Shown: piece by piece, positions 4,618 to 29,276 of the stretch | Layout of the letters: the number at the start of each line of letters is the position of its first letter | Numbering within the stretch: position 1 is the stretch's first letter | IMG/VR virus record: IMGVR_UViG_3300028580_000125 | Coordinates: 27,623-91,622 of that record | Strand: one strand, 5' to 3' | From: a virus | Lineage: Duplodnaviria; Caudoviricetes | DNA length: 64,000 nt | The notes under the pieces: model-generated | What the model saw: only the letters and a program-made list of their open reading frames with translations | Database searches by the model: none | Told to the model about the DNA's origin: nothing | Made by a program: the position numbers and the translations under genes

Positions 4618-5186
4618 TGAACAGAATGGAACAGCTTGGAGTCCTTGTGCCAAGGGTTCTGCCACAAGTTCTGCCGTGCCCCCGCAGCATGGTTATTGAT
4701 GCCCTGCAATACATTGCGGGCGATTTTTGCGGAAAGACTGGCGTGTGGTCCATGACCCTGCAAGAAGACGCAATCAAAGGGGATAGCGGAATACGGCTCA
4801 ATCCTCCAAAGGGCGTTGCTATTTCCAGAGTCGAGTCTGTCTACATTGATGGCTCGTACATTGACAAAGATGAGTATCGCTCAACGGCAAACGACATCCT
4901 GCTTGGATTTGTGCCACAGCGTGATGCCATTGCCACAATCATGTGCACCGTGAGGCCGTCCCGTAATGCGGAATCCTTACCAGAAGAGATTGCCGAGGAA
5001 TGGGGCGACACAATCGCATATGGGGCCCTGGCAAAAGTTAAGGCCATGAGCGGAAACAATATCGAGTGGACAGATGCCCAAGGGGCCAAATTAGCCCTTG
5101 AACTATACAACGAGGGCTGCGCGCGAGCGAGGGCCAAAATGATACGCCGCAAGCACGGCGACAGCCTTTTTGTGGGGGATCTATGA
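4614..5186 (+). CDS. Putative adaptor / tail tubular A-like protein
   Basis: AGGAGG SD and ATGA overlap; DFCGKTGVW and TIAYGALA motifs. Confidence 0.55.
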   Translation: MMNRMEQLGVLVPRVLPQVLPCPRSMVIDALQYIAGDFCGKTGVWSMTLQEDAIKGDSGIRLNPPKGVAISRVESVYIDGSYIDKDEYRSTANDILLGFVPQRDAIATIMCTVRPSRNAESLPEEIAEEWGDTIAYGALAKVKAMSGNNIEWTDAQGAKLALELYNEGCARARAKMIRRKHGDSLFVGDL

Positions 5187-6832
5187 GCAACACAATACCC
5201 ACAGTCAAAGTAACCGCAAGATTCGTTGACCAGCTTGGCGCGCCTGTCTGCAAGGCTGTTGTGACCATGCGGCTTACTACAACGGAACGCTATGCCGGGT
5301 ACATTGTTCCGCGCGAGGCGCGGGCTGTGACCGATGCAATGGGCGTTGCCGTGCTGCAGGTATGGCCCAATGAACTGGGCACTGAAAGCAGCGAGTATGC
5401 CGTTTCTGTCACATTCCCAGATGCTTGCGCTGCAAACAGCAGCATAGCGCCAATGCGCAGCATCAGGGGAAACTGCGTTGTTCCAAACGCAGATTGCAAC
5501 CTGCAAGACATAATGGAGTTGCCCGCTTACGAGCCGCGCAGTGCTGGACAGGCTGTAGAAACAGAGGTCGCGCACTGGGCGTCTTTGGCTGCCCAGTATT
5601 CGGAAGGTGCCAGGGCTTCAATGCAGGGTGCGCAGTCCGTTGAGACCAGGCTTAATGCCACAGCTGACGTGGCATCTGCCTCGCGGCTGGCGGCGCAAGA
5701 GGCCGCACAGTCAGCAAGCGCATCTGCTACGCGGGCGCAAGGTCTTGTCGATGGAGTTTCAAGCACCATAAGCCACTTCCAAAACTCTGTTGTCGAACAA
5801 ACAGCAGAAACAGTGGAACGGCTTACGGTTGATGCGACAACTTCCATCGGCCAGCACAAAGCCTCTGCCATCGACGAGATCGGCGCCAAGGTTGAAGCGA
5901 CTATGGATGAATCCATAGCCACTTTGACGCAGGCCAGATCAGAATCAATGCAGGCCGTATCAGGCGCAAAGCAGGCTGGCCTTGATCAAATATCAACGGC
6001 CGGGGCCACTCAGCTTTTGGCGCTACGCAATGAGGCCGCACTCTTTGGCGAGGACTTTGAAAACCTCACCGAACGCGCGGAATCCGCAGCAAAGAAAGCC
6101 GGGTGTTCATCTGCCGCAGCGGCCAATGCTGAGAGCGTAGCAACATCCGCGGCTTCGCGGGCCGAAAGTGCAGCACAATGGCTTGAGAGGCACAGGGACG
6201 ATGCCTTGTCTGCTGCCACCAGGGCCGTCGCTGCAGCACAAACCGTTGACGCGGCAGCAAACACAGCCACGGCCAAAGCAACCTTGGCCGTGAATGCCGC
6301 AGCGGAAGTGGCCACAGCTCACCAGTCAATATCTCAAAGTGAGCAGTCTGCAGCTGCCAGCGCACAGGTGGCCACGGCAGCGAAGAATGCCACCGCAGCA
6401 AATGCCGAGGCGGTGGCCACGGCAACTGCCAACATGGAACAGTCCATAGCGGCTGCGGCTGGCAAGCTTGTGAACGAAGACATTGTAAACGCAGCAGTAT
6501 CCCAGGCAACTGCAAGCGCAACGGCTGCCGCGACAGCGGCAACCAATGCGGCAACGTCTGCTGGACAAGCTGCTTCTGTCGTCGAAACACACGCCGCTGA
6601 GGTCGCAACGGCTACCGCAAGGGTGGTTGATATCGCCGGACAAATGACCCTGGGGCTAAACGTTGAGAAGTCGACAATCGAAATGGCCGCATCGGTCATA
6701 CGACTCACCGATCACTCAACGCAGCTTCAGGTTGATAACCTCACTGCTTCTGTGTCTGGGGTTGATATGGCCACTGAGCTTGCGCGCCTTTCCGGCAGGG
6801 TAACGCGCCTGGAACTGCAAGGGGCATCCTAA
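5183..6832 (+). CDS. Tail fibre-like protein with long Ala-rich coiled coil
   Basis: N-terminal beta domain (TDAMGVAVLQVWPNELG) followed by ~400 aa of Ala/Ser/Thr-rich helical sequence. Confidence 0.6.
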   Translation: MSNTIPTVKVTARFVDQLGAPVCKAVVTMRLTTTERYAGYIVPREARAVTDAMGVAVLQVWPNELGTESSEYAVSVTFPDACAANSSIAPMRSIRGNCVVPNADCNLQDIMELPAYEPRSAGQAVETEVAHWASLAAQYSEGARASMQGAQSVETRLNATADVASASRLAAQEAAQSASASATRAQGLVDGVSSTISHFQNSVVEQTAETVERLTVDATTSIGQHKASAIDEIGAKVEATMDESIATLTQARSESMQAVSGAKQAGLDQISTAGATQLLALRNEAALFGEDFENLTERAESAAKKAGCSSAAAANAESVATSAASRAESAAQWLERHRDDALSAATRAVAAAQTVDAAANTATAKATLAVNAAAEVATAHQSISQSEQSAAASAQVATAAKNATAANAEAVATATANMEQSIAAAAGKLVNEDIVNAAVSQATASATAAATAATNAATSAGQAASVVETHAAEVATATARVVDIAGQMTLGLNVEKSTIEMAASVIRLTDHSTQLQVDNLTASVSGVDMATELARLSGRVTRLELQGAS

Positions 6833-6917
6833 ATACTGATCAGGCTGACCCTGAATTGATGCCGCTATTTCATAGCTGAGGCCAGTGGCCCCGGCTTCAA
6901 CAAGCAACGGAGTTCAT

Positions 6918-8810
6918 ATGAGCCAAACCACAGAAGATCAGCCGACCAATGCAGAATTGGTTGCCGCTGTTACCGGCGCTGTAAGCGCTGTGCAGGATGC
7001 TCAGACGACGGTGGTGAATGCCACCAAAAATCTTACGACGCACCTTTCTGACCCCAACGCGCACGGCGCAGAAACGAAAGCAAACATTGAGGCCGCTGTA
7101 CCCAAACCCATATGGGCAGGAACGCGCCTTTCCTTTGCGAGCGACAATGGCAGCATTGCAACGACATCTGTCAACCTCAAGGGCGAAAAGGGGGACAAAG
7201 GCGATAAGGGTGACGCAGGCACAGCGGGCACGACTGGCCCGCGCCCTGCCCATAAATGGGTTGGCACGTCCCTGTTCGTCCAGTCGCCCGATGGGACATA
7301 CCCTGAAACCGGCACTGATCTTAAGGGTGAGAAAGGAGATCAGGGCGAGAAAGGTGACAAGGGCGACAAAGGCGACACTGGCATCCAAGGGCCAGCTGGC
7401 GGCCCCAAAGGTGACAAGGGCGATAAGGGTGATACCGGCCCGATGCCAGAACATCTGTGGGACGGAACGTCCGTCATGTTCCAGAAAGCGGATGGTTCGT
7501 GGCCTACCCAATATGTCAACCTCAAGGGCGAAAAGGGGGACAAGGGCGATACCGGCGCTGCTGGTATTGACGGTGCCGTGACCAACCTTTCGGACGCCAT
7601 CAACTCCAGCGACAGCACCAAGGCGGCAAGCTCCAAGGCAGTCAAGGACGCGACGGACACGCATAACTCGGCTTCTGACGCACACGGGATCAACAATCCC
7701 GAAAGCGGCTTCCGCGCTTCAATCGTAGCCATTGCTGCGGCTCAGGCCCAAAAGGCTGCGGCTGACGCAGTGGCCAGCCTCGAAATTGTTTCTGCAAGCC
7801 CGATCTTTGGTATCTGCCGCGTTCGCACTGGTGGCGGTAGCGGCCTGTTCTTCCAGACTGACGACAAGGGCAACCCGCAAAACCTTGTTACGGATTATTT
7901 TGACCGGCACCCGGTTTACAGCGCCATCAAGCGCGTCATCGTTGACGGCCAGGTAATGAACGAAATTCCTCAGTTCTTCGTGAAGAACTACACCCCTACG
8001 GAAGGAACGTTTGCCAACTGCCCTATCACCATGATCTCTCCCGTTGCCGCTGACGGGTTCCACATCCACCCTGCGTTCATGAACAACAGCGCCCAGATCA
8101 GCAAGTTTATGCTCGGCTGCTACAAGGGCAGTTTGGACAGTACACTCACGAAGGTTCAGAGCGTCCCCGGCGTATATCCTGCCGTGTCCAAGGACTTCTC
8201 CACATTCAAGGCCCTTTGCACAAACAGAAACGTCAGCGGCGTTGCAGGCTTCATGATGCAGGATGTGTATCAGCGCGCTGCCCTGCAACTGCTCATGCTT
8301 GCAGAATTTGCCAATTCCAACATGCAGTCTGTTCTTGGCGCCGGGCACACAGCCGGTTCTGCTGCCGTGACGGTGGACAACGCCGCAAACCATAAGCCCT
8401 GGCGAAACTTCCACGGCGTGTACGGGAACGTCTGGGAAATGGTCGATGGCGTTCGCGCAGACGGAAGTAAAAAGCTTGAAATCTATCGCAATGACGGAAC
8501 GCGGGCATATCTCGCAACGAATCTCACCATACCTGTGTTTGGCTCCGGCATGACCGGGTGGACGGTGGATATGCTGAGCGATGTGGCTGACGGCTACGAC
8601 ATGCGCGACGCCTTCATTCCCAAAACACTGGACGCGACAGAAACGAACGGCACCTACAGCGATGGCATGTGGGGCGCAGTGGCAAACGGCGTTTGCTATA
8701 CCGGCGGCTGCTGGGGCGATGGTTCAGCCGCAGGCCTGTTCTCCTGCAACTTCAACTACGTTGCTTCCTACTCGGACGCGTACATCGGGTGCCGCCTCGC
8801 AAAAGTGTAG
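6918..8810 (+). CDS. DGR target: collagen-like tail fibre / receptor-binding protein with C-terminal C-type-lectin (FGE-like) fold
   Basis: GGAG SD before ATG 6918; GEKGDKG repeats; GNVWEMVDG and GGxW...IGCRL motifs; its 3' end is the VR matching the TR. Confidence 0.9.
   Translation: MSQTTEDQPTNAELVAAVTGAVSAVQDAQTTVVNATKNLTTHLSDPNAHGAETKANIEAAVPKPIWAGTRLSFASDNGSIATTSVNLKGEKGDKGDKGDAGTAGTTGPRPAHKWVGTSLFVQSPDGTYPETGTDLKGEKGDQGEKGDKGDKGDTGIQGPAGGPKGDKGDKGDTGPMPEHLWDGTSVMFQKADGSWPTQYVNLKGEKGDKGDTGAAGIDGAVTNLSDAINSSDSTKAASSKAVKDATDTHNSASDAHGINNPESGFRASIVAIAAAQAQKAAADAVASLEIVSASPIFGICRVRTGGGSGLFFQTDDKGNPQNLVTDYFDRHPVYSAIKRVIVDGQVMNEIPQFFVKNYTPTEGTFANCPITMISPVAADGFHIHPAFMNNSAQISKFMLGCYKGSLDSTLTKVQSVPGVYPAVSKDFSTFKALCTNRNVSGVAGFMMQDVYQRAALQLLMLAEFANSNMQSVLGAGHTAGSAAVTVDNAANHKPWRNFHGVYGNVWEMVDGVRADGSKKLEIYRNDGTRAYLATNLTIPVFGSGMTGWTVDMLSDVADGYDMRDAFIPKTLDATETNGTYSDGMWGAVANGVCYTGGCWGDGSAAGLFSCNFNYVASYSDAYIGCRLAKV
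7169..7543 (+). repeat. Collagen-like repeat units, including an identical 30-bp direct repeat (7169-7198 and 7514-7543)
   Basis: tgtcaacctcaagggcgaaaagggggacaa occurs twice; three W-x-GT...LKGEKG(DKG)n protein units. Confidence 0.85.
8701..8803 (+). repeat. DGR variable repeat (VR)
   Basis: 103-nt ungapped match to 10322-10424 with 10 mismatches, all opposite TR adenines. Confidence 0.97.
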
Positions 8811-8838
8811 CCTGAACCCTGAAACACGTTTCCTGCTC

Positions 8839-8858
8839 TGGCCGCCGATAGGCGGCCA
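8839..8858 (+). other. DGR target-recognition hairpin/cruciform downstream of VR
   Basis: tggccgcc-GATA-ggcggcca: perfect 8-bp GC-rich stem with a GRNA-type tetraloop, 28 nt after the target stop codon. Confidence 0.85.
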
Positions 8859-8881
8859 TGGCCAGGGAAAAGGATTGCCAT

Positions 8882-9151
8882 ATGAAGATCATTTTTACCC
8901 ACAACGAAAAGACCATCGAAATTGAATACCTGGGAACGGGCAATGGCGAAGCGAAGCTTTACGGCGTTCCCACCGATTACAGCGAAGACGGGTACTACGT
9001 TTCCGCTTGGCAAAAAACTGAAATCGAACCCGTCCCGGCCTGCGCCGTGAGTGACGCTCACCTGCTTTGCCACGTCAACATCGAGAAGGATCGGGAAAGC
9101 TTTGTGCTGAAAACTGTCAAGACCACCGAGGGGGCCGACTGCCATGCCTAA
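8882..9151 (+). CDS. Hypothetical protein (tail-fibre associated)
   Basis: AAGGA SD, ATG 8882, overlaps next gene by 8 nt. Confidence 0.6.
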   Translation: MKIIFTHNEKTIEIEYLGTGNGEAKLYGVPTDYSEDGYYVSAWQKTEIEPVPACAVSDAHLLCHVNIEKDRESFVLKTVKTTEGADCHA

Positions 9152-9545
9152 GACAGAAACAGGGATCAACCATGTGACCATGCTTGGCGGGATTGAGAGC
9201 GCCAAGGCTGTGAAGCTCAACGAAATAAACAACAAGTGCGAGCTCGCCCTGCGCAGCCTCACGGACAATTACCCCGACACGGAACGCCTGACCTTTGATC
9301 AGCAGAAGGCAGAAGCGGCAGCCTACCAGGCCAACAACACTGCATCCTGCCCGATGCTCACCACTCTTGCCCAGGCACGCGGGATAACGATTGAAGATTT
9401 GGCCGCCAGGGTTTTGGAAAAGGCGGCAGCGTTTTCAAAGGCATCTGGTGCGCTCATTGGCACACGCCAGAAGTTTGAAGATACGCTTGACGGCTGCACA
9501 AGCATCCAGGCCGTTGAATCAATCTTTGTGGATTACGCACTGTAG
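9144..9545 (+). CDS. Putative tail fibre assembly/chaperone-like protein
   Basis: YPDTERLTFDQQKAEAAAY...LAQARGIT...LIGTRQ motif, recalled from ORFs downstream of tail fibre genes. Confidence 0.65.
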   Translation: MPKTETGINHVTMLGGIESAKAVKLNEINNKCELALRSLTDNYPDTERLTFDQQKAEAAAYQANNTASCPMLTTLAQARGITIEDLAARVLEKAAAFSKASGALIGTRQKFEDTLDGCTSIQAVESIFVDYAL

Positions 9546-9554
9546 GGCTTGGCC

Positions 9555-9872
9555 ATGAACCGCTTTCAAGTCTTGCTCCACAACGGACGGCAGATGTTGA
9601 TCTCCATAGATCAGGGTGCCAACGCCGCATTCGGCCTCATGATTGCCACGCTCTGCATGATCCCTTTCATTCCAAAGGCCGGGCTGTGGTGGGCAGATGA
9701 AACAATCAGCGCCCATTGCTGGCGGTGGCATATTAACGGCGTGCGCAGTTGGCCACGCAAGGTTGTAGATGCTTTGGCGCTCCTGTTTGGCGACAAGGAC
9801 CACTGCCAACAGAGCTATGAGAGTGAACGCCTCGGGCGGCAACTGCCGCCTGAAGAACGAACATCAAAATAA
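9555..9872 (+). CDS. Conserved phage hypothetical protein
   Basis: LISIDQ...WADETISA.CWR...DHCQQSYESE motif recalled from tail-region ORFs of proteobacterial phages. Confidence 0.65.
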   Translation: MNRFQVLLHNGRQMLISIDQGANAAFGLMIATLCMIPFIPKAGLWWADETISAHCWRWHINGVRSWPRKVVDALALLFGDKDHCQQSYESERLGRQLPPEERTSK

Positions 9873-9882
9873 AGAAGGACAC

Positions 9883-10296
9883 ATGAGCGGTGAAAGCCTG
9901 GCAATGCTGGAAAAGATGGAAGACGTCAGCGCATATTCCAGAATCGCCATGCGACAGTTCCCACGCTACGAGAAGTTTCTTTTGGCCGCCGAGATCAGGA
10001 CGGCAATCTCTGAAATAAAGCGCCTGCTCATACGGGCTGCGAAACGTTATTACAAAAAAACCACCCTGGAAGACTTGGACATTGAGCTTGAACTGCTCCG
10101 CTCTCTCATACGAGAGGCAGTAAAGCTCAAATACATAGACGTGCACCGCTATGAGGTCTGGTCTTTGAAAATAAGCGAAGTCGGCAAAATGACCGGGGCA
10201 TGGATGAAGAAGGTGCGAAGCGCACAGGAATCCAGCGCGCGAACTGGTCAGAGAGGTGGTCGCACAACTTTCCCATTGAACCCGAACGACGGGTAA
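9883..10296 (+). CDS. avd: DGR accessory variability determinant Avd
   Basis: AAGGA SD; 137-aa basic helical protein with QFPRYEKFLLAAEIR, LEDLDIELELLRSLIR and EVGKMTGAW; immediately upstream of TR. Confidence 0.9.
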   Translation: MSGESLAMLEKMEDVSAYSRIAMRQFPRYEKFLLAAEIRTAISEIKRLLIRAAKRYYKKTTLEDLDIELELLRSLIREAVKLKYIDVHRYEVWSLKISEVGKMTGAWMKKVRSAQESSARTGQRGGRTTFPLNPNDG

Positions 10297-10585
10297 GTGG
10301 GATAAGGGCAGCGACCTACATCCGGCGGCAACTGGGACAATGGTTCAGCCGCAGGCCTGTTCTACTGCAACTTCAACAACGTTGCTTCCAACTCGAACAC
10401 GAACATCGGGTGCCGCCTCGCAAATATAGCCCACAAGCCAGAAGGCGAATGCCCAAGGGTATTCATCCAGTGCTTTATTTGGGGCCGCTGTCCTTCTCGG
10501 TAAGCCGGGAAAAGAACAAAACCGTGGCAGGCGGCAAGTAGCTGCTGCAAAAGCGGCCTGCCACACCCTCAAGGGGTATGAACGT
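10297..10585 (+). ncRNA. Putative DGR template RNA (TR plus structured 3' spacer)
   Basis: Intergenic avd-RT region containing TR and stem gtggcaggc (10524-10532) / gcctgccac (10556-10564); boundaries are inferred. Confidence 0.6.
10322..10424 (+). repeat. DGR template repeat (TR)
   Basis: Non-coding copy of VR, rich in AAC triplets, between avd and RT. Confidence 0.97.
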
Positions 10586-11635
10586 ATGCCAAAGACAATC
10601 AGGGACATCTGGCCGCGCATAACCTGCTTCGACAATCTCGTTGCTGCCTGGGAGGATGCACGGCGCGGAAAGAGGTTTCTTCCGTCTGTCCTCAAATTCA
10701 GCGGCAGCGTTGAAGAGAATCTACTCGATATTCAAGGCAGACTCCTCCATAGGACTTGGCGGCCTGGCCCATGGCGCGAGTTCATATCCAACGATCCAAA
10801 ACCACGCCTCATTCAAGCCCCGCAGTTTGGGGATCGCGTTGTGCACCATGCGCTCGTGCGGGTTATAGGCCCGGCATTTGAGCGCAGATTCATCAATGAT
10901 AGCTACGCTTGCCGCAAGGGGCTTGGTAATTTGTCGGCCAGTGACCGGCTTACTGATTTTCTCAGGGCTTCAACGTCTGAAACGAGAAAGTCTGGGCGTA
11001 AAATTTACGCTCTCAAGGCCGATGTGCGGAAGTATTTCCCGAACATTGACCACGACATCCTCCTTGGCGTTTTGAAGCGCACAGTGGGCGACGAGGGCGC
11101 GTTATGGCTCATAGAGAAAATTGTCAAAGACAATGGATTTGAGCAGCGCGGCCTACCTATCGGCGCACTGACAAGCCAACTTTTCGCAAACGCCTACCTG
11201 GACGTTCTGGATCACTACGTCAAGGACGAGCTCGGCGTTCGTTTCTACGTCAGGTATATGGATGATTTCATCATCTTGCATACCGACAAGCGCCACCTTC
11301 ACGATCTCCAAACACTTATCGGCTCTGTTCTTTGGGAGCGGTTAAAGCTTCAGTTCAACCCTAAGACGAGCATCTTCCCTGCGTCGCACGGAATTGACTT
11401 CGCCGGGTATCGCCACTGGGTATCGTACCGCCTCCCGCGAAAGCGAAATATCAAGCGGACTCGCAGAAAATTCAAAGAGATCAGGAAGCTTTATGCCGAA
11501 GGAAGGATGGACGTGGCGCAGGTAAGGTCAAGGGTCGCCTCTTTTGTTGGATACACAAAGCACTGCAAGGCTTCGAGAACCGTAAAGGGAGTTCTCGACG
11601 AATTAGTTTTGCAGCGCGGTGGAGGTGCAGAATGA
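10586..11635 (+). CDS. brt: DGR reverse transcriptase
   Basis: 349 aa; DRVVHHAL, LKADVRKYFPNIDH, GLPIGALTSQ (DGR-type IGxxxSQ), YVRYMDDF, GIDFAGY; no maturase or endonuclease extension. Confidence 0.95.
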   Translation: MPKTIRDIWPRITCFDNLVAAWEDARRGKRFLPSVLKFSGSVEENLLDIQGRLLHRTWRPGPWREFISNDPKPRLIQAPQFGDRVVHHALVRVIGPAFERRFINDSYACRKGLGNLSASDRLTDFLRASTSETRKSGRKIYALKADVRKYFPNIDHDILLGVLKRTVGDEGALWLIEKIVKDNGFEQRGLPIGALTSQLFANAYLDVLDHYVKDELGVRFYVRYMDDFIILHTDKRHLHDLQTLIGSVLWERLKLQFNPKTSIFPASHGIDFAGYRHWVSYRLPRKRNIKRTRRKFKEIRKLYAEGRMDVAQVRSRVASFVGYTKHCKASRTVKGVLDELVLQRGGGAE

Positions 11636-18332: not shown

Positions 18333-21300
18333 ATGCCCAAACAAAAGGCCCCACGGCCTACGAAGACCAATACAGGCGATTACCTGCTTGATTTCGACGG
18401 GACAGATTTCAGCCAGTTCGGCGGCCAACAGGCGCAGCAGCAGGAAGAAGAACCTGGACTTATGAGCAAGATTGGCAGTTCTGCCCAGGCAATTGCTGAA
18501 GGTGCAACCATGCTGCCGGGCCAGATCGCTGATACGCTCAGGGATGCCTACCATGGCGGCGATGTGGATGTTACCGATACTGATGCCATTCGCGCGCGCC
18601 AGGCACGCGAGCAAGAGCGCGCAGACTACGGTAAAAAGTATGATGGCAAAGCCTTTGAGGGCGTAACCGATGCCATGAATTCCATGGGCTATTCCATGGG
18701 AACAATGGGTGCAAGCCTCGGCGCTGCGGCCCTGGCTTCCCCTGCCGGGCCGATTGCCGCTGGCGCAGCAGGCATGGCCGCCTCTGGCGCCATGGCATAC
18801 AGGGCAACAAAGCAGCAGTTTTTGCAGCAAATGCTTGGCGAGACGGAAAAGGTTCTTGGCCGCCTGCCAACACAGGATGAGTGGGACAAGATCGCCACAG
18901 AGTTTGACGGCGAGGCAACGCGCTACGGTGCATGGGAAGCAGGCCCGGAAGCCCTGAGCAACCTCATTATGGCAAAAATTCTCGGCCCGCTTGGAAAGGG
19001 CCTGTTGCGCGGCAGCGTGGGCCAGGGCATCAAGAGGATTGGCGGCCTGTATGGTGAAGAGCTTGCCACAGAAACAGCAACCCAGATGGGACAAGGCCAA
19101 GAAGAGGCCAATGTGGGCTTGCGCGACACAGCGCCGGGCGTCTGGGATGCGTTCAAGGAAATCGGCCCTGCTACGTTCTGGCAGACCACGCTCATGGCTG
19201 GCGGCAAGAAAGGTGCAGACATGCTTGCCAACCGCATGCGCGCACGTTCGCAACAGGTTGAAAATAATGTCGACCAGACGCAGCAACAGGGGCAAGGCAC
19301 AACGGGACTGACGAACCAAGCCGCATTGCCAATGGCGCAGGGGATATTTGCCTTGCCGCAGGGCGACGGCTCAATTCCCATGGGCAGCACAGATACGGGC
19401 CGGGGCCCCATTGCCGCAGGCGTTGTAGCTGGCCAGCAGCCAAAGCCTTTTCTCAGCGACGCTGACCATGCCGATACTGAGGCCTTTGTGCGTGCCTTTG
19501 AAGAGCGCGAGCGAAACAGGGATGACGAGGAAGCCCTTATCGAGTACGGCCAGCGTCAGGCCCGCTCGCCTGCTCAGCTTGCACTTGACCAGGGCGAAAA
19601 CGTCGACCTGCTATCGCTTCCGCAGGGTAATGCGGCCATGGCCATGGGGACCGAAGACACCGGGCGCGGCCCGATTGCCCCGCCAACTGACTATGCAGGT
19701 CAGCCCATTGCGACCCCATATACGCCACGCCCCGCCCTTCCTGAACAGACTTCGCAATCTGCGGGCATGGGCCAGTGGGCTGGCGGGCGCTCGCAGCTTG
19801 CCTACGGGCCGAAGTCTGAACCGCAGATGATGCAGGGCTTGGGCATCATGTCGCAGCAGGGAGCACCAGTTCAGCCCCAGGCAATGCCCACCTCGGCACA
19901 AATCAACAATACACAGGCCGCGCCCCGTTCGGACACAACAGCCGCAGCTAATGCCCTTGGCATGCCCTCGCCGCAGGCTGTTCCACAGGAGGCCATGGCC
20001 CCGCAGAGGGCACAGGCTTTGCCCCCAATAATGCAGGGCATAGGCGCTGCGCCTGCGCAGCCAACACCCGCCCCACAGCAAGCGTTTACCAGCCAGCCGC
20101 AGCCAGAACAAAATTCAAGAGGTCCGTGGCTTGAGGTGGTTCATATTGGCGATTCTGCCCCTAAAGCAAAGCCTCGGCCGCAACAGAGTCAGCCTGCAGG
20201 GCGTGCAGATGACTCGCGCCCAATTGGAAAGAACAGCCGCGGGCAGCAAGTGTTCGAGGACAAAAATGGAGTGCGCTCTTATGCTGACGGCGGCGTGCGA
20301 GTTTCGCAGAGCGTTGGTGTTATCCCCGGCCATGGCATAACGTTTGATGGCCCTGACGCGCTGTATAAGAGCGGAAAGCAGGAGTACCTGACCAACGACG
20401 AGGTTAAAAGCCTTTCTGGTGGCACAAGTGAGCCTGAGAGCAAAAAGCCAAGCCGCATAGAGCTCATTCGCCAACTCCCCAAAGAAGAGCAGGCTGATGC
20501 CCGCAAGCTTCCAAACTCAAAGCTGTTGGAGCGAGTTCGCCAGCTTTCAGAGGTCAATACTGCTTCCGAAGATCAGCCGGGCGTGGTAGAATCTAACCAT
20601 GCCAAGGAGGGCGAACATGCAGAAGCAAACGAAGGAAGAACGCGCGGAAATGAAGGAAAAGCTGAACCAGGTGTACGCAACCCTGACGAAGCCGTTGGAA
20701 ACCCAGCTGATGGATCACATGAAGAAGTACACGCCGAACCAGGTGAAGGAATGGCTGACGGACGACGGGCCGAAGGCGCTCGCGGACTTCATTCAGGAAC
20801 AGGTAGCGAGCGCGGAAAGCACGCGGGACGATACGGCGAAGAAGCTGATCGAAAAGGGGATGAGCGAGGGCGAAGCGTGGCCGATGGCGCGCGAAGTGGC
20901 GATGCAGGACTTTTGGCCACAAGCGGAACCCGGGCGCGAGGGGTAAAAGACTTTCGCATTTCCCCCGATGACCACATCGGAGAAGGTGGAAAGGTCGCCA
21001 AATTCAACGACAACCTTTCTGCCATTCGCACGCTCAAGGAAATTGAGCAGTCTGGCCGCCCAGCTACCGAAGACGAACAGAGAACCCTTGCCCGGTATGT
21101 TGGCTGGGGTGGCCTTCCAGAAGTGTTTGCCGAAGGCGGCAAGGCCGACCCTGCGCTGACCCGCAGGCGCGCCGAATTGCGCGAACTTCTTTCGCCAAAA
21201 GAATTTGAAGAAGCGCGCAGATCCACAACGAACGCTCACTACACTTCGCCTGAAATCATCATGGCAATGTGGGATGCCATTAAGCGTATGGGCTTTAAGG

Positions 21301-24300
21301 GCGGCAAAGTTCTTGAGCCTTCTATGGGCGTTGGCAACTTCATTGGCTTGATGCCTAATGACGTATACAAAAAGTCCCACGTCACCGGCATTGAGCTTGA
21401 TGGCATTACTGCGCGGATCGCAAAGCTGCTGTATCCGAAACAGACCATTCTTTCGCAGGGATTTGAAACTGCCAAACTGCGTGACGGCAGCTTTGACCTG
21501 GCCATATCCAACGTGCCATTCGGCGACTACAAGCTGCACGACACCCGCTACGCGAAGCACAATCTCTTCATCCACGACTATTTCATCACTCGCGCGCTCG
21601 ACCTTGTGCGCCCGGGCGGCGTGGTAGCCTTTATCACCACTTCCGGCTCACTGAACAGCGGGCGCTCAATGAATATGCGCCAGTTGGCCGCCGACAAGGC
21701 GCGCCTGCTCGGTGCTATTCGCCTGCCAGGCACATCATTCAGCAAGAATGCCCTCACGGACGTGACAACGGACATTCTGTTTTTGCAACGCCTTGGTGAG
21801 GGTGAAACCAACACCAGCCCCGCATGGAAGGATGTGGTTGATACCGACGTTGTTTCGGAGAAGACGGGCAAGCCGTTGCGGAACAACGAATACTATTCTG
21901 CGCACCCAGAAATGATGCTGGGGCAGCTGGCAGACGATAAGCTCTACCCTGGCAGGACGGCGCTTAAGGATGACGGCAGGGACATGCCGGCCGCTTTGGG
22001 TGACGCGCTGAAAACGCTCCCAGAAGGAGTGTTTTCTGGTGAAGGTCTGCGCCATGAGGATCAGAAAGCAACTGCCAATGTGCAGATGCAGGACGCCAAA
22101 GAGGGCCAGCTGCTGCTGGATGGCAAAGGCAATATCGTTCAGGTGTCTGACGGGGAACTGAAAAACTATCCGGCTGACGGAAAGAAAGCTGCGCGCATTG
22201 CCGGGATGATCGGGGTTCGTGATGCCCTGCGTTCAAACCTGCGGGCGCAGATGAACGGAGACGAAGACAGCATTGCGCACTCCCGCACGGCTCTCAACGA
22301 CGCTTACGACGCATTTGTGAAGCAGCACGGCTTCTTAAATGACAATGCCAACCGCCTGGCCATGTCAGAAGACCCCGACTTTCCCCTTTTGCAAGCCCTG
22401 GAAAACAACTACACCAAGGGAAAAAACGGTGCGCCTTCCAAGGCTGAGAAGGCCGACATCTTCACCCGCCGGACAATCGCTGAACCCAAGATTATTGAGC
22501 ACGCAGAGACGCCGCAGGATGCCCTGCACGCACAGCTTGCGGATATAGGCCGGGTTGATATTCCAGGCATTGCGAAAATGACCGGCCTTTCTGAGCAGGC
22601 CGTTATTGACGATTTACACGGAACCATCTTTCAAAACCCCAAGGGAACCCGGTGGGAAACCGCTGACGACTATCTCTCTGGGAACGTCCGCAAAAAACTT
22701 GCTGAGGCAAAGAAGGCCGCCGAAAAGGACGTGAAGTTCAAGGAGAACGTTAAGGCTCTAGAAGCCGTGCAGCCGCAGGATGTGCCGCCACAAGACATCC
22801 GCGTTGACCTGGGCGCCGGGTGGGTTCCCTCGGCGCGCGTTGAAGAATTTGCGGCAAAAGTCCTTGGCATATCGCCTTCAGACGTATCGGCACGCTATTC
22901 AAAAGAACTGGCGCAATGGTCGCTGAACGTCAAAAAAAGCGGCCTAAGCAATGAGTACGGGACGCCAGAGCGTAGCGCACTGGAACTGCTCAATGATTCG
23001 CTCAATCTGAAACAGGCAAAAATTCAGATCGACACGCCGGAAGGTGTGATCGTGAACAAGGAAGCCACCATTGCCGCCCGCGAGGCGCAACGCAAGTTGC
23101 ATGAAGAATTCTCGCGCTGGATTCTGGAGGATGAAAAGCGCGCCGCTGAATTGGCCCGCATCTACAACGACACTTACAATGCCATGCGCCTTTATGAGGC
23201 TGATGGCTCGCACCTTGTGTTGCCCGGCATTGCCGATACCATAGAGGGGAAACCCTTTGCCCTGCGCCCGCACCAGAAAAGCGCCGTGTGGAGGATTATC
23301 CAGAAGGGCAACACGCTGGTTGCCCATGCTGTTGGTGCTGGCAAAACGTATGAAATGATTGCCGCAGGCATGGAAATGAAGCGTCTTGGAATGATCAACA
23401 AGCCGCTTTACGTCGTTCCCAACCATATGCTTGAGCAGTGGTCGCGCGAGTTTTTGCAGGCCTACCCTGCCGCCAATATCCTCGTTGCATCCAAGGCTGA
23501 CCTTCAAAAGGAGAAGCGCCGCAAGTTTGTGAGCCGCATTGCCACTGGCAACTGGGATGCCGTGGTCATGACCCACTCTTCTTTTGGCCGCATTCCTATT
23601 TCAGTGGAGCGGAAAGAAAAACATATCCGCGATCAGATTGAGCAGTATGAATCTGCCCTGCGCGCCGAGAACGAAGAAAAGAAGGCTGGGCGCGGGCGTT
23701 CTGAAAACAGGCTTGTTAAGCAACTTGAAAAGCAGAAAATGCGCCTTGAAGAAAAACTTCGCACGCTGCTTGAAGACGGAAAAAATGCCAAAGATAACCA
23801 GGTGAATTTTGAAGAACTTGGCGTGGACTTCATGTTTGTCGATGAGGCCCATAACTTCAAGAATCTGAGCTACGTCACGCGGATGCAGCGCATTGCCGGT
23901 CTGCCCAATAGTCATTCCCAGCGCGCTGAGGACATGCTTCTGAAGACGCAGTACCTCGACGAATTGCACCCTGGCAGGAGCCTTGTGTTTGCCACCGGCA
24001 CGCCAATCTCCAATACCGTGGCCGAAATGTACACCATGACCAGGTATGTAGCTCCGCATCTGCTGCGCGAATCCGGCCTTGAAATGTGTGATTCTTGGGC
24101 GCGCCAGTTTGGCCGCACTGTCACCGGCATGGAAATATCGCCGGATGGCCGGAACTTCCGCGAAAATACCCGCTTCTCGCGTTTCACAAACGTGCCGGAA
24201 CTTTTGACCATGTTCCGCAGCTTTGCCGACGTGAAGACCAAGGAAGACCTCGACCTGCCGCTTCCTGACCTCAAGGGCGGCAAGCCTGAAGTTGTGTCTG

Positions 24301-27300
24301 TAAAGCCGTCCGAATCCCTCACGAATTATGTCGATGAACTTGTGGCCAGGGCTGAGAAGATACGTGGCGGTTCCGTTGATCCGCGCAAAGACAACATGCT
24401 CAAGGTGACAAGCGAGGGTCGCCTTGCTGCCCTGGACATGCGCCTGATTGACGACACGCTCCCTGCTGACCCCAATGGCAAGGTAGCGCGCGCGACTGAC
24501 AACATCTACGACATCTGGAAATCCACATCGAAGGACAGACTCGCCCAGATGGTTTTCTGCGACCTCTCTGTGCCATCAAAGCAGAGGGCCAAAGGCCTGA
24601 AGGAGGCAGAAAACCAAGATCAGGACGGCGAAGCCGCCAAGCCTGAGGCAAGTCCTGATGATTTGCTGGCTGCCGCATCTCGCGGGTCATTCAGCGTCTA
24701 CGACGAGATCAAGAACAACCTCGTCGACATGGGTGTTCCAGCAGACGAAATTGCCTTTATCCATGACTTCAACGGCGATAAGGCAAAGGCCCAGCTTTTT
24801 AAAGACGTGCGGGCGGGCAAGGTGCGGGTGCTCCTTGGTTCGACCGCTAAGATGGGAGAAGGAACGAACGTGCAGGAGCGACTTGTGGCTCTGCACCATC
24901 TGGACGCGCCCTGGAAGCCATCAGCCGTCGAACAGCGTGAAGGGCGAATTCTGCGCCAAGGCAACAAGAACAAAGAGGTGCAGATATACACCTATGTGAC
25001 CGAGAACAGCTTTGATGCCTATATGTGGCAATTGCTGGAATCGAAGGCGCGCTTTGTGGCCACATCCATGCGCAGCGGTGTCACCGAGCGAGACATGGAC
25101 GATATCAGCGTTACCGAACTTTCCGCTGCAGAAGCCAAGGCCGCCGCAACTGGAGATAAGCGCATCCTTGAAAAAGTTGGCCTGGACAACACCATATCTC
25201 GGTTGACCGTTCTGAAGCGTGAATTTGATCGCAACCAGTGGGCCAAGGGGCGCGAGGTAGCCGAATCTAAATCCCGCCTCGCCACGCTTACAGACATACT
25301 TGCTGCCGAAAAGAAAGATTTATCCCTGGCGGCAACGCTGACCGGGAAGAACTTTGCGCTCACCCTGCGCGGCAAAGAATACACGAAGTCCACGGATGCA
25401 GCCGCGGCTATAATCAGCATTGTTTCTGACAAAAGCATCCCCAGCGGCGCAGTCATCGGCAAGGCTGGCGGCTTTGATATTACCATGTGGCGCAAGGCAA
25501 CGGGCTATGAGTTTTCCCTGTCTGGGGAATCCTCGTTCAGTACCGGCGACACAACATCATCCGAAGGAGCCGTGACGCGCATCGTCAAGGGAGCCTCGCC
25601 AGAGAACAGCGCCAGCAGGATTGCGGCAACCGAAGAGGCCATTGCCAAAACAAACCGTAGACTTGATGGGGCAACGAAGTGGCTTACGAACAACAAGTCT
25701 TTCGACAGGCAAGAAGAACTGGAAACGGCCTTGGCCAGAAGCCAGGAGCTCGATGACGAGCTTGGTCTGTCTGCATCCAAGGATGCCAGCGTGATCAGCA
25801 ATGAAGCTGACAGCGACAATGATCTTATGGCCTCAAAGGTGAACCCTGGCGAATACCTCCCCCCCGTTGACGGGAAAAAGGGCATGCGCCTTGAAGACGT
25901 ACAGACCGTTGCTGACAAGATCGGGAAGCTGGCAAAAAATGCGGCAGCGTCGCGTGTCGTGCAAGGTTTTGACGAACTGCCATATTCGATCAGGGAGCGT
26001 TATTCGGACGCTAAAAACAGCGTCGAGGGCGTTTTTGACCCGCGTTCTGGCGTGGTCTGGATGGTGGCCGACAACCTCAGTGATCCAACGCGCGCGGCCG
26101 AGGTGTGGGCCCATGAACAGATTGTTCACCATGGCCTGCGCGGGCTGCTTCCGGCTGATGCCAGAAGGCGTGTGCTTAACCAGCTTTGGCTTGGTGCTGG
26201 CGGCATGAAGAACGGCATGGTGAAGGACATTGCCAGCCGTTACGGCTTGGCCCCCACCAGAAGCTTGCAAGACCGTCAAACGGTTATGGAAGAAGTCATT
26301 GCTGCCCTGGCAGAAAAGAAGGGGCAGGGGCTTCTTGAGCGCGCCGAAGGCAACCTATGGCGCAGGGTTGTTTCTGCCCTGTACCGTGCATGGAACAGCC
26401 TCGTTCGCGCCGTTTCTGGGCGAGAAGGGGCTATGAACATGGACAACATTGATGCCTTGCTCTCCGCACTCGGAAGACATGTGATTGATGGGGAATCTTC
26501 CGGCATCACCCAGAAGGCCGGGCCGTTTGAACAGGCGGTTGCGCCAGCGTCGATGTCAACTGAGGGTGACGGCGGCGTTGAATTGGCTTCCCTTTCACCG
26601 AAAGACATTCTCGGCCTTACTGGCATAAAGGCCGCAAAGATTGCTGACGCACCAGAGATTCACCATATGTTCAAGAAGGATGACTTGAGCTTGATGCAGA
26701 GCATTTTTAATCTGCCGCATTGGATTGCCAAAAAAGCGCCGGCCTTTGCCAAAGTCTATGAACGGCAGTTGCAACGCTTGGATGATCGGTCATCCGCGCT
26801 CAAGGAAAGCCTTGAAACCGCGCCGAGCATTTTCGGCAAGGACAGACTCAAGCCTGCCGACATGGACAGCCTGAAAAAGCTGCTTTGGGAGCATGAGGGC
26901 CGGGACGCATGGCAGATTGACGCTTCCGGCGTTGACAAGTTTGTCACCAAGGAAACTCTGGCCAACGGGCGAGAATTAATTTCTGTGAACCCTGAATTTT
27001 ATCGGGAGTACAAGAAATGGCTCGGCGGCCTGGAAGGCACAAAGGCTGCCAAGGACGCAATGCTTGAAATTCGCAAGAGCCTTGATGAGGACTTGGTGCG
27101 GGCTCATAACCGCATGGCTGCAATGTCTGAAATGAGCGACGACGCGATCAGGGAGTTCCGGCAAAGCATTGGCCATGTGCCGAACTACTTTCCTCACCAC
27201 CGATATGGGAACTACTTTATTCAAGCGAAGATCGGTGATGAGGTTGTTTTTAGGCAGCACTTTGATGCACTGAACACCCAAGCGGCAAAACAGCGCGCCG

Positions 27301-29276
27301 CCATGATCGCTGCTGAGCAAAAAGAAAACTACCCTGGCGCAAGCTGGACGGATGGAAAGAATGACCGTCTGCCAGATGAAATTCTTGGCGCACCGATTGA
27401 CACCGAGGCAATGGAGCAAATCATCCGTGCGGCAACATCGAAGATTGCGGACAAGGAACGTGCCGCCGAAATCAATGAACTGCTCACGTCTGGCGTTGCC
27501 GATGTGCTTAAGGCGCGTGGCTGGGGCGCGCACGGCATACAACGTAAAGGCATTCCAGGCTTTGAGCGTGAGGACATCACGCGGGTGCTCTACGACTACA
27601 AATCCGGCCTGAATGGCTGGCTTACCAAGATGGAGGCCGCAAAGGATTTCAGCGAGGCGTTGTCGGGCATTGATGCACGGCGCACTCCGAACCTTTGGAA
27701 GTACACGGCCCAATACGTCAAAGACATGCTGCGCAACTCTGATCGCGTGGACAGGATCACCGGCAATATCAAGTCTGTTGCCTTTGCCTGGTATCTTGGC
27801 GGCTCAATCAAAACTGCGTTTGTGAACGCCACCCAGAACCTTGTAGTGGGTGTGCCGCGCTTGCAGATGGATGTAACCGGCGGCGGCCGCCTCTGGCTCG
27901 ATGGTGCGCAAAAAGCAATCATTGACCGGGTGACAGGCAGCAAGGGCAAAGGCCTTTCGGACGAAGAGGCAAAGCTCGTACATGAACTTTACGGCGAGAG
28001 CGTGATCACTGACGCTTTCATGGAAGAAGTGCGCGGGCATTTGCAGGGCTTCACCGGCGCTACGCTCTGGAACAAGTTCACTAAGGCATTGGGCCTGCCC
28101 ATGAGCGAAGTTGAACGATTCAACCGGGCCAGTTTGGCCCTGGCCGCATTCCGCGCTGCGCGCAGCGGCAAGCTCAAGCAGCAGGCAAAAGAGAAGTATG
28201 GTGTCAGGGGCGAACAGGCGAATTATGACCAGGCGAAAGAATTTGCCACGGATGTAGTGCGAGATGCCCACTTTGTGTACGGCAAGTCCAACCTGCCAGA
28301 GTTCATGCGCAGCAATACTGCCGGGCGGTCAATGGCTTCGCTCTATACGTTCCGCACGTTCACACACAACATGATTTCCATGTGGGCATGGGCGCTGGAA
28401 TCGCAAGGCAAAGAAGGCGCTGCGTTTGTGGCGAAAAGCATAGGGGCCACAATGGCCCTTGGCGGCGTTACCGCCCTGCCCTTCTACGCAACCATTATGG
28501 CCTTGTGCCAGGCTGCCACCGGAGACGATGACGATTGGACAGAAAAACTCCGCTCCTGGCTGCCCAAGAACAACTTGCTGCGGGATGCTGTGTGCTACGG
28601 CACGCCAGCCATGGCCGGGGTAAACATTGGCGGCTCGCTCAAGATGGAGACGCCTATTACTGGCGGCCTTGCCAAGGGTAAGACGCCCAAAGAAATACTT
28701 ACCCAGAGCATTGGGGATATAATCGGCGTTCCATACGATTTGCTGATCGAAAAGCCCTCCAAGATGATTGAGGCTCACCGCAAGGGGAATACGTGGAGAA
28801 TGATCGAAGAGGCCATGCCGGTTGCATTCAAGAGCGGCATGCAGGCTTGGCGGCTGTACACCCATGGGCAAACAACCATGTCTGGACGGCCAATAAATGA
28901 CCCTGGAACGCCAGGTGCGCGCAAGCTTTCGTCAAGTGAGGCCATAGGCAAGGCTCTTGGATTCCAGCCAGTCAGTAGCACAAAGAGCTATGATGCGTAT
29001 GCCGCATCGCAGCATTCGAAACAGGTGCGCGACGACAAGCTTGATGACCTTACGGCCATGGCGCTGAAAACAGTCGATACTGGGGACCCGGCGGGCAGAA
29101 AGGAAATGCTCAAGGACCTCAAAAATTGGAACAGTCGCATGAAGGAAGAGGGCAAGCCCAATATGCTCATTGCACCCAAAGAAGTTATTCGCAGGGTGAA
29201 GGCACGCAGGCGCGAGAACAGGCCGACGCCAAAGAACCTGCGCGAAAAGGCACGGCTGCAGGCGTCTTGGAACTAA
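18333..29276 (+). CDS. Giant DarB-like polyvalent protein: N6-adenine MTase, SNF2 helicase, zincin-like peptidase motif, PLxRFG-like C-terminal region
   Basis: AAGGAG SD; VLEPSMGVG (~21309), NVPF (~21510), HAVGAGKT (~23330), DEAH (23841), QREGRILRQGN, HEQIVHH (~26112), YFPHHRYG (~27186). Confidence 0.85.
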   Translation: MPKQKAPRPTKTNTGDYLLDFDGTDFSQFGGQQAQQQEEEPGLMSKIGSSAQAIAEGATMLPGQIADTLRDAYHGGDVDVTDTDAIRARQAREQERADYGKKYDGKAFEGVTDAMNSMGYSMGTMGASLGAAALASPAGPIAAGAAGMAASGAMAYRATKQQFLQQMLGETEKVLGRLPTQDEWDKIATEFDGEATRYGAWEAGPEALSNLIMAKILGPLGKGLLRGSVGQGIKRIGGLYGEELATETATQMGQGQEEANVGLRDTAPGVWDAFKEIGPATFWQTTLMAGGKKGADMLANRMRARSQQVENNVDQTQQQGQGTTGLTNQAALPMAQGIFALPQGDGSIPMGSTDTGRGPIAAGVVAGQQPKPFLSDADHADTEAFVRAFEERERNRDDEEALIEYGQRQARSPAQLALDQGENVDLLSLPQGNAAMAMGTEDTGRGPIAPPTDYAGQPIATPYTPRPALPEQTSQSAGMGQWAGGRSQLAYGPKSEPQMMQGLGIMSQQGAPVQPQAMPTSAQINNTQAAPRSDTTAAANALGMPSPQAVPQEAMAPQRAQALPPIMQGIGAAPAQPTPAPQQAFTSQPQPEQNSRGPWLEVVHIGDSAPKAKPRPQQSQPAGRADDSRPIGKNSRGQQVFEDKNGVRSYADGGVRVSQSVGVIPGHGITFDGPDALYKSGKQEYLTNDEVKSLSGGTSEPESKKPSRIELIRQLPKEEQADARKLPNSKLLERVRQLSEVNTASEDQPGVVESNHAKEGEHAEANEGRTRGNEGKAEPGVRNPDEAVGNPADGSHEEVHAEPGEGMADGRRAEGARGLHSGTGSERGKHAGRYGEEADRKGDERGRSVADGARSGDAGLLATSGTRARGVKDFRISPDDHIGEGGKVAKFNDNLSAIRTLKEIEQSGRPATEDEQRTLARYVGWGGLPEVFAEGGKADPALTRRRAELRELLSPKEFEEARRSTTNAHYTSPEIIMAMWDAIKRMGFKGGKVLEPSMGVGNFIGLMPNDVYKKSHVTGIELDGITARIAKLLYPKQTILSQGFETAKLRDGSFDLAISNVPFGDYKLHDTRYAKHNLFIHDYFITRALDLVRPGGVVAFITTSGSLNSGRSMNMRQLAADKARLLGAIRLPGTSFSKNALTDVTTDILFLQRLGEGETNTSPAWKDVVDTDVVSEKTGKPLRNNEYYSAHPEMMLGQLADDKLYPGRTALKDDGRDMPAALGDALKTLPEGVFSGEGLRHEDQKATANVQMQDAKEGQLLLDGKGNIVQVSDGELKNYPADGKKAARIAGMIGVRDALRSNLRAQMNGDEDSIAHSRTALNDAYDAFVKQHGFLNDNANRLAMSEDPDFPLLQALENNYTKGKNGAPSKAEKADIFTRRTIAEPKIIEHAETPQDALHAQLADIGRVDIPGIAKMTGLSEQAVIDDLHGTIFQNPKGTRWETADDYLSGNVRKKLAEAKKAAEKDVKFKENVKALEAVQPQDVPPQDIRVDLGAGWVPSARVEEFAAKVLGISPSDVSARYSKELAQWSLNVKKSGLSNEYGTPERSALELLNDSLNLKQAKIQIDTPEGVIVNKEATIAAREAQRKLHEEFSRWILEDEKRAAELARIYNDTYNAMRLYEADGSHLVLPGIADTIEGKPFALRPHQKSAVWRIIQKGNTLVAHAVGAGKTYEMIAAGMEMKRLGMINKPLYVVPNHMLEQWSREFLQAYPAANILVASKADLQKEKRRKFVSRIATGNWDAVVMTHSSFGRIPISVERKEKHIRDQIEQYESALRAENEEKKAGRGRSENRLVKQLEKQKMRLEEKLRTLLEDGKNAKDNQVNFEELGVDFMFVDEAHNFKNLSYVTRMQRIAGLPNSHSQRAEDMLLKTQYLDELHPGRSLVFATGTPISNTVAEMYTMTRYVAPHLLRESGLEMCDSWARQFGRTVTGMEISPDGRNFRENTRFSRFTNVPELLTMFRSFADVKTKEDLDLPLPDLKGGKPEVVSVKPSESLTNYVDELVARAEKIRGGSVDPRKDNMLKVTSEGRLAALDMRLIDDTLPADPNGKVARATDNIYDIWKSTSKDRLAQMVFCDLSVPSKQRAKGLKEAENQDQDGEAAKPEASPDDLLAAASRGSFSVYDEIKNNLVDMGVPADEIAFIHDFNGDKAKAQLFKDVRAGKVRVLLGSTAKMGEGTNVQERLVALHHLDAPWKPSAVEQREGRILRQGNKNKEVQIYTYVTENSFDAYMWQLLESKARFVATSMRSGVTERDMDDISVTELSAAEAKAAATGDKRILEKVGLDNTISRLTVLKREFDRNQWAKGREVAESKSRLATLTDILAAEKKDLSLAATLTGKNFALTLRGKEYTKSTDAAAAIISIVSDKSIPSGAVIGKAGGFDITMWRKATGYEFSLSGESSFSTGDTTSSEGAVTRIVKGASPENSASRIAATEEAIAKTNRRLDGATKWLTNNKSFDRQEELETALARSQELDDELGLSASKDASVISNEADSDNDLMASKVNPGEYLPPVDGKKGMRLEDVQTVADKIGKLAKNAAASRVVQGFDELPYSIRERYSDAKNSVEGVFDPRSGVVWMVADNLSDPTRAAEVWAHEQIVHHGLRGLLPADARRRVLNQLWLGAGGMKNGMVKDIASRYGLAPTRSLQDRQTVMEEVIAALAEKKGQGLLERAEGNLWRRVVSALYRAWNSLVRAVSGREGAMNMDNIDALLSALGRHVIDGESSGITQKAGPFEQAVAPASMSTEGDGGVELASLSPKDILGLTGIKAAKIADAPEIHHMFKKDDLSLMQSIFNLPHWIAKKAPAFAKVYERQLQRLDDRSSALKESLETAPSIFGKDRLKPADMDSLKKLLWEHEGRDAWQIDASGVDKFVTKETLANGRELISVNPEFYREYKKWLGGLEGTKAAKDAMLEIRKSLDEDLVRAHNRMAAMSEMSDDAIREFRQSIGHVPNYFPHHRYGNYFIQAKIGDEVVFRQHFDALNTQAAKQRAAMIAAEQKENYPGASWTDGKNDRLPDEILGAPIDTEAMEQIIRAATSKIADKERAAEINELLTSGVADVLKARGWGAHGIQRKGIPGFEREDITRVLYDYKSGLNGWLTKMEAAKDFSEALSGIDARRTPNLWKYTAQYVKDMLRNSDRVDRITGNIKSVAFAWYLGGSIKTAFVNATQNLVVGVPRLQMDVTGGGRLWLDGAQKAIIDRVTGSKGKGLSDEEAKLVHELYGESVITDAFMEEVRGHLQGFTGATLWNKFTKALGLPMSEVERFNRASLALAAFRAARSGKLKQQAKEKYGVRGEQANYDQAKEFATDVVRDAHFVYGKSNLPEFMRSNTAGRSMASLYTFRTFTHNMISMWAWALESQGKEGAAFVAKSIGATMALGGVTALPFYATIMALCQAATGDDDDWTEKLRSWLPKNNLLRDAVCYGTPAMAGVNIGGSLKMETPITGGLAKGKTPKEILTQSIGDIIGVPYDLLIEKPSKMIEAHRKGNTWRMIEEAMPVAFKSGMQAWRLYTHGQTTMSGRPINDPGTPGARKLSSSEAIGKALGFQPVSSTKSYDAYAASQHSKQVRDDKLDDLTAMALKTVDTGDPAGRKEMLKDLKNWNSRMKEEGKPNMLIAPKEVIRRVKARRRENRPTPKNLREKARLQASWN
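20617..20946 (+). CDS. Nested (+1 frame) 109-aa helical protein, TnpV/DUF1896-like
   Basis: AAGGAGG at 20604-20610, 6 nt before ATG 20617. The product looks like a folded helical protein, while the host frame here is low-complexity G/R/E/A. Confidence 0.6.
   Translation: MQKQTKEERAEMKEKLNQVYATLTKPLETQLMDHMKKYTPNQVKEWLTDDGPKALADFIQEQVASAESTRDDTAKKLIEKGMSEGEAWPMAREVAMQDFWPQAEPGREG

Follow-up and report, generated by a model that had tools for sequence, protein, structure and literature searches.

A complete diversity-generating retroelement in the tail operon of a probable Desulfovibrio prophage, and a second target matched by the same template repeat

We analyzed a 64,000-nt stretch of viral DNA (hereafter "the window"), which corresponds to positions 27623-91622 of the IMG/VR provirus record IMGVR_UViG_3300028580_000125 (91,622 nt, here G000), and found that its positions 6918-11635 contain a real and complete diversity-generating retroelement (DGR). 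Throughout the text, coordinates without a prefix refer to the window, while those of G000 and of the L-numbered loci refer to their own records. The target gene with its variable repeat (VR), a hairpin, the avd gene, the template repeat (TR) and the reverse transcriptase (RT) gene are all encoded on the + strand and are flanked by genes of tail-fibre and internal virion proteins. The RT gene and the virion gene that follows it overlap, with the stop codon of the former running into the start of the latter at 11632, which places the cassette inside the late operon. A preliminary description of this DNA had proposed a complete, intact DGR in this segment, with all parts co-oriented within the tail module, and every feature it listed is present at the positions it gave. 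Its reading of a DGR acting on the adjacent target holds as well, but it is incomplete, as it does not cover a second target of this TR, which is not adjacent to the cassette and is located outside the window. We consider it highly likely that the element is a BPP-1-type DGR, and that the prophage whose late (tail) operon contains it is temperate, podovirus-like, ~57 kb long and from a human-gut Desulfovibrio of the D. desulfuricans group. Other phages already provide examples of both this mechanism and a layout with two targets, and neither changes the known biology of DGRs; the main point of interest is the role of the second target, a conserved, stand-alone protein encoded in an early operon.

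The adjacent target, termed here T1 (6918-8810, + strand), is a collagen-like tail fibre of 630 aa with a predicted variable lectin-fold domain at the C-terminus. Its open reading frame (ORF) spans 6885-8810 (641 aa), and the ATG at 6918, which the preliminary description had also chosen, is the most likely start because the natural homologues are 630 aa long. The assignment as a fibre relies on matches to the Pfam families Collagen (1.8e-8) and Phage_fiber_2, and on the PHROG family phrog_5302 ("tail protein"), which extends across residues 353-639. Codons 595-629 of the 630-aa protein contain VR1 (8701-8803, + strand), a 103-nt direct repeat that aligns without gaps to the TR (10322-10424, + strand). 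The two copies differ at 10 positions, in each of which an adenine in the TR corresponds to another nucleotide in the VR (10/10); the hypergeometric probability that all 10 mismatches fall on the 25 adenines among the 103 positions is 1.4e-7. Adenine occupies position 1 or 2 in 12 codons of the TR (8 of them AAY), and these 12 variable codons could in theory encode up to 6.6e11 different proteins per target, none of the accessible changes creating a stop codon.

The remaining components of the cassette are equally recognizable. The avd gene (accessory variability determinant; 9883-10296, + strand) encodes a protein of 137 aa that matches Pfam bAvd (4.2e-25), phrog_3206 "Avd protein of DGR" (3e-35) and the NCBIfam model NF033474 DivGenRetAVD (111.5 bits versus the cut-off of 80). 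Its start is probably at 9883 rather than at 9769, and the 137-aa ORF is conserved in a related contig, L082, discussed below. The 161-nt spacer between the TR and the RT contains a structured region (10432-10565, + strand) that matches the Rfam family RT-14 (RF02921) with 51.5 bits versus the gathering score of 48.1 (E 1.4e-5), and 24 of the 29 pairs in its helices still pair via changes on both sides (RNAalifold, 13 relatives). RT-14 appears to represent the spacer of the DGR RNA, equivalent to the "Sp" element of BPP-1. The RT itself (10586-11635, + strand) is an intact, uninterrupted protein of 349 aa, identified by matches to RVT_1 (1.6e-16) and phrog_1423 (1.9e-122), and the preliminary description of it as intact and carrying the IGALTSQ and YMDD motifs is borne out.

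A scan of the whole G000 record with the TR, in which changes were tolerated only at adenines, revealed a third copy of the repeat. This 103-nt copy, termed VR2 (G000 5120-5222, - strand), is located 31 kb upstream of the cassette; all 13 of its mismatches fall on adenines of the TR and none on other positions (P = 4.9e-10). VR2 forms the end of a stand-alone 332-aa protein, T2 (G000 5113-6111, - strand), encoded in an early operon adjoining the integrase gene. T1 residues 307-641 align with T2 over the whole length of the latter (37% identity, E 7e-59). Neither target matches any lectin or formylglycine-generating enzyme (FGE) family in Pfam or NCBIfam, and a sequence search of PDB with T1 returned only collagen peptides; the fold was therefore shown by modelling of T2. 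The AlphaFold2 model (pLDDT 95.6, from an alignment of 38 sequences) has as its top PDB folds TaqVP (Foldseek E 1.3e-14), TvpA and Mtd, followed by FGE enzymes, and on the basis of this model T2 has the fold of DGR variable proteins. The C-terminal half of T1 is predicted to share this lectin fold by virtue of its 37% identity to the modelled protein. The best structural match, TaqVP from the DGR of a Thermus aquaticus prophage (PDB 5vf4, TM 0.57), resembles T2 in its FGE-type C-type-lectin fold and C-terminal VR, but exhibits only 16-17% sequence identity to it, and is the adjacent target of its own DGR.

Comparison of the sequences surrounding the three repeats points to candidate targeting signals. 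Past the repeat, VR1 and VR2 have AGTGTAGCCTG in common, whereas the TR has TATAGCCCACA there, which is the pattern expected for the initiation of mutagenic homing sequence (IMH) versus its TR counterpart IMH*. The putative IMH of T1 (8786-8821, + strand) comprises the GC-rich 3' end of the VR and its VR-specific continuation, and by analogy with BPP-1 it would act as such. It is followed by a putative target-recognition hairpin (8839-8858, + strand; 8-bp GC stem, GATA loop) 35 nt past VR1, for which the DNA fold has z = -3.0, while nothing comparable is found past the TR (z = 0.0). The hairpin associated with VR2 has 10 bp and a GAAA loop, and GNNA-loop hairpins are located 30-37 nt past VR2 and past the VRs of two related elements, L083 and L198. 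The IMH-like end and the hairpin are hence features of both VRs, absent at the TR, and recur in L083 and L198. What the old paralogues T1 and T2 have in common is limited to the VR, the IMH-like sequence and the hairpin, and together they provide a natural minimal definition of the cis-signals for targeting. According to the mechanism we propose, a transcript comprising the 3' end of avd, the TR and the structured spacer would bind the complex of RT and Avd; the RT would make cDNA from the TR with misincorporation opposite adenines, and this cDNA would replace the VR of any target bearing an IMH and a downstream GNNA-loop hairpin. Two such targets would be available, the fibre domain adjoining the cassette (T1) and the distal protein on the opposite strand (T2).

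The whole cassette has no megablast match among 50,697 phage records, and the closest RT from an isolated phage exhibits 42% identity, yet related elements are found in other proviruses and in metagenomes. The L083 provirus, with an RT 71% identical to that of the window, has the same order of a fibre target, three small ORFs, avd, TR and RT; it has one VR, and a second one was not found in it by BLAST. A more distant prophage, L198 (1-12606; JGI 3300027566 Ga0209639_1000356), has a homologue of T2 with 45% identity. There, an adjacent 471-aa target is followed by three small genes, bAvd, TR and RT, and a stand-alone 332-aa lectin-fold protein is encoded 5.5 kb further, among genes for CI-like, Phage_CP76, PAPS-reductase-like and integrase proteins. 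One TR matches both VRs of L198 with differences at adenines only, and GNNA-loop hairpins are present past both; judging from these sequence features, the two-target layout is conserved in this prophage. A third T2 homologue (49% identical) is also found among small early genes.

In order to examine natural variation of the targets we used protein clusters, because the DNA-level population data are thin: a scan for the A-to-N pattern retrieved only L082 from IMG/VR and only three stretches from the JGI metagenomes. The clusters at 90% identity contain 40 (T1) and 62 (T2) member sequences, and column entropy was computed on 14-15 distinct members per target, which are >90% identical. VR codons whose TR counterpart has an adenine as its first or second base show an entropy of 1.93 bits in T1 and 2.22 bits in T2, compared to 0.06 and 0.08-0.09 bits, respectively, in all other columns. 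The preliminary description had linked a working element to variation at the TR-adenine positions, and natural copies do vary there. At the DNA level, the VR1 sequences of three independent copies (G000, L194 and L195) all differ, nearly exclusively at TR adenines, with 0-1 differences from the TR at other positions. The metagenome contig JGI20225J20221_1000342 (L195), the backbone of which is 98% identical, carries the change A26T in its TR, and T26 is found in both of its VRs, so that the TR passes its sequence information on to the two VRs. The restriction of variation to A-codons and the TR change copied into both VRs argue for recent activity, and the DGR is very probably active at present or was so recently; retrohoming would presumably still operate in this particular lysogen. 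The same clusters (at least 90% identity) of both targets include sequences from Desulfovibrio sp. QI0442 and from an uncultured Desulfovibrio in which both targets are located on one contig. The D. faecalis type strain, QI0442T, comes from human faeces and has a G+C content of 56.9% (PMC13609909). On the strength of these protein matches, it probably carries a close relative of the prophage.

Several observations weigh against an active DGR whose purpose is receptor switching. There is a single mismatch at a non-adenine position in VR1 of L195. The evidence for variation comes from comparisons between samples, and variation of this kind could date from earlier activity. Apart from the RT, none of the 21 window proteins matches BPP-1 (tblastn against BPP-1 positions 1-30000), the phage that provides the paradigm by analogy with which diversification of T1 may alter receptor specificity or host range. 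T2, which has neither a signal peptide nor a fibre-attachment region and is encoded in an early operon, suggests a role outside the tail-fibre paradigm. Finally, L082, which has an identical TR and an RT 100% identical to that of the window, encodes a 906-aa tailspike (L082:662-3382) in place of window positions 5206-9878, i.e. the fibre, T1 and the three small ORFs. No VR was found by the TR scan on this 7.9-kb contig. Either the avd-TR-RT cassette can persist without an adjacent target or the contig is chimeric; accordingly, L082 represents either a natural swap of the receptor-binding module or an assembly artifact.

L082 also provides an argument in favour of a fossil DGR, whose parts look intact but in which retrohoming has ceased, so that the differences between VRs would be inherited relics of past activity. 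We regard this as improbable: all ORFs of the DGR are intact, backbones that are 96-98% identical carry VRs differing at many adenine positions with the non-adenine positions fixed, the point change in the TR of L195 has spread to both VRs of that element, and the 14-15 distinct members compared (from the 40 of T1 and the 62 of T2) differ mainly at A-codons. A more radical alternative would assign the RT to group II introns, retrons or defence systems and explain the repeat pair as a chance duplication of the end of the fibre gene; it might be prompted by database annotations of its relatives, which frequently read "retron-type", and by the best named RT model in NCBIfam, which is that of the group II RT/maturase. 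That match is weak, however, and its 116 bits are far under the cut-off of 300, with the retron and Drt models scoring lower still, i.e. the RT scores under the cut-offs of all three types of models. The best PDB match is the RT of BPP-1 (bRT, 8ub7, E 7e-50), compared to 1e-15 for group II intron RTs. We also calculated a FastTree phylogeny (259 columns, 59 RTs), with four group II, six retron-type and three other RTs as outsiders; the retron-type sequences were chosen by the YxDD motif, as phmmer with the window RT fails to reach them at 1e-3. The window RT, Brt of BPP-1 and 44 relatives form one clade (SH-like support 0.98) with no outsider within, and the RT is placed in the DGR clade, apart from group II intron and retron RTs, in agreement with the affiliation assumed in the preliminary description. 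A Rfam scan of positions 8600-10700 revealed no intron or msr/msd RNA structures, and three features of the locus are specific to DGRs, namely Avd, the adenine-only mismatches and the RT-14 spacer. We consider this alternative extremely unlikely.

The role of T2 is less straightforward. One explanation is that it is a second virion receptor-binding protein, a globular unit similar to Mtd that docks on the fibres, so that both targets would serve host-range switching. Homology to the receptor-binding half of T1 extends along all of T2, which also matches phrog_5302 "tail protein", and Mtd of BPP-1 is free-standing and lacks a signal peptide as well. On the other hand, the T2 gene belongs to the leftward, integrase-proximal early operon of the opposite strand, together with genes for Lar, ASCH, DUF5131, a radical-SAM protein, an RNase T-type exonuclease, DUF1351 and a RecT-like protein; homologues are similarly placed in two further contexts, T2 has no collagen-like stalk or other N-terminal extension, and the comparable distal target of Quimbyvirus has been interpreted as non-structural (PMC8008677). 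We therefore consider a virion function possible but rather unlikely, and infer that T2 has its role away from the virion, perhaps in conflict between phage and host. A more specific proposal, which we put forward only tentatively and as a fairly long shot, is that T2-type proteins constitute a conserved class of DGR-diversified, non-virion cytoplasmic binders expressed from prophage early operons, which would track variable molecules of the host or of competitors (e.g. defence proteins or superinfecting phages). The proposal is suggested by the lack of a signal peptide, by the neighbouring Lar, exonuclease, RecT-like and radical-SAM genes, and by the same placement in prophages whose homologues are 45-49% identical. 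If this were true for the class, targeted hypermutation would serve counter-defence or exclusion rather than adsorption. Searches with T2 against phage records yielded only three weak matches.

As a separate observation, a 123-aa early protein (phrog_2428) is encoded next to T2 in L162 (L162:6208-6579, - strand), with a sub-threshold match to the Pfam Acb2/Tad1 hairpin family (E 4e-4, 20.8 bits versus the cut-off of 27); were the match real, T2 would be located beside an anti-defence sponge.

Among the known DGRs, that of BPP-1 (bbp9 fibre - mtd/VR - avd - TR - brt) shares with the window element the gene order of fibre, variable protein, avd, TR and RT, the location of the VR at the 3' end of the gene for a lectin-fold protein, the adenine-only differences between TR and VR, and the IMH-like end with a hairpin with a 4-nt loop past the VR. 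The RTs are 35.5% identical over 301 aa. Unlike the free Mtd of BPP-1, the variable domain of T1 is fused to a collagen-like fibre; the window element additionally has three small genes between the target and avd and a second, distal target, and its host is Desulfovibrio instead of Bordetella. We considered a kinship of the virion with that of BPP-1 (Rauchvirus) and rejected it, as only the RT matches.

With respect to the two targets, the closest counterpart is Quimbyvirus, a Bacteroides phage of the "Quimbyviridae", for which Benler et al. (2021) described one structural target and another, distal one that is encoded on the opposite strand and has defence-related neighbours (PMC8008677). Both elements have one TR for a target in the structural module and for a distal, opposite-strand lectin-fold target among genes of defence or counter-defence type. 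Quimbyvirus, which we compared by description and not by sequence, belongs to a different phage lineage with hosts from another phylum, and its RT is split over three frames, whereas that of the window is a single ORF; T2 differs further in being a full-length paralogue of the binding domain of T1. Wu et al. (2018) reported many DGRs of phages in which, besides the adjacent target, a non-adjacent one is found in the same prophage at a distance of up to 50 kb (PMC5758913); Desulfovibrio does not occur in the main text of that survey (0 occurrences), and the function of second targets was outside its scope. DGRs from the same host genus and habitat have been reported in Mu-like prophages of Desulfovibrio piger, with an Avd-like accessory protein and FGE-sulfatase or tail-fibre targets (PMC12724379), but these are of Mu-like myovirus types, with no second target reported. 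An RT fragment from D. piger (L059) is 56% identical to the RT of the window. Phages of sulfate-reducing gut bacteria have hardly been characterized, and the element described here adds to them a well-documented, apparently active DGR. D. faecalis QI0442T is a cultured strain and, if its TR and RT are confirmed, both tropism switching and the role of distal, non-structural DGR targets could be studied experimentally.

ORF listing and repeat finding delineate a block that begins with the gene for a 549-aa Ala-rich fibre or anchor protein (5183-6832, + strand), directly upstream of T1, and continues with the target, three small ORFs, avd, TR and RT up to 11635. The 549-aa protein, which we regard as context and not as part of the DGR core, has no match in Pfam or PHROG. 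Over its first ~120 aa it shares 41% identity with the N-terminus of the L082 tailspike, in which only this anchor is kept, and the similarity fits a virion-attachment domain. The interval between T1 and avd is occupied by three ORFs on the + strand. The first (8858-9151, 97 aa) has no family match; its DNA is conserved in L083, and it is lost together with T1 in L082. The second (9144-9545, 133 aa) contains a tail-module domain (phrog_2618, 8.6e-31) with homologues that unrelated phages encode within their tail modules, among them PHB09, a Bordetella phage without a DGR, and DGR-bearing prophages of Helicobacter canis, and is probably a fibre-associated protein rather than a component of the DGR core. 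The third (9549-9872, 107 aa; phrog_3342, 1.1e-13) travels with T1 and is absent from L082. The possibility that these ORFs are accessory genes of the DGR was dropped, given the presence of the 133-aa domain in non-DGR tail modules and the loss of the block with T1 in L082.

The block of virion and ejection genes ends with a single ORF of 3647 aa (18333-29276), and the IMG/VR "provirus" record probably overruns the end of the phage near 29.3-30 kb. Between 30000 and 58000 the G+C content falls from ~56% to 44-50%, and the genes encode an AAA_25 protein, an SMC/AAA_23 ATPase, a DUF927 primase-like protein, ParB, a SNF2 helicase, an N6/N4 methylase with a ResIII-endonuclease (resembling a type III restriction-modification system) and GmrSD. 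This region resembles a separate mobile or defence island.

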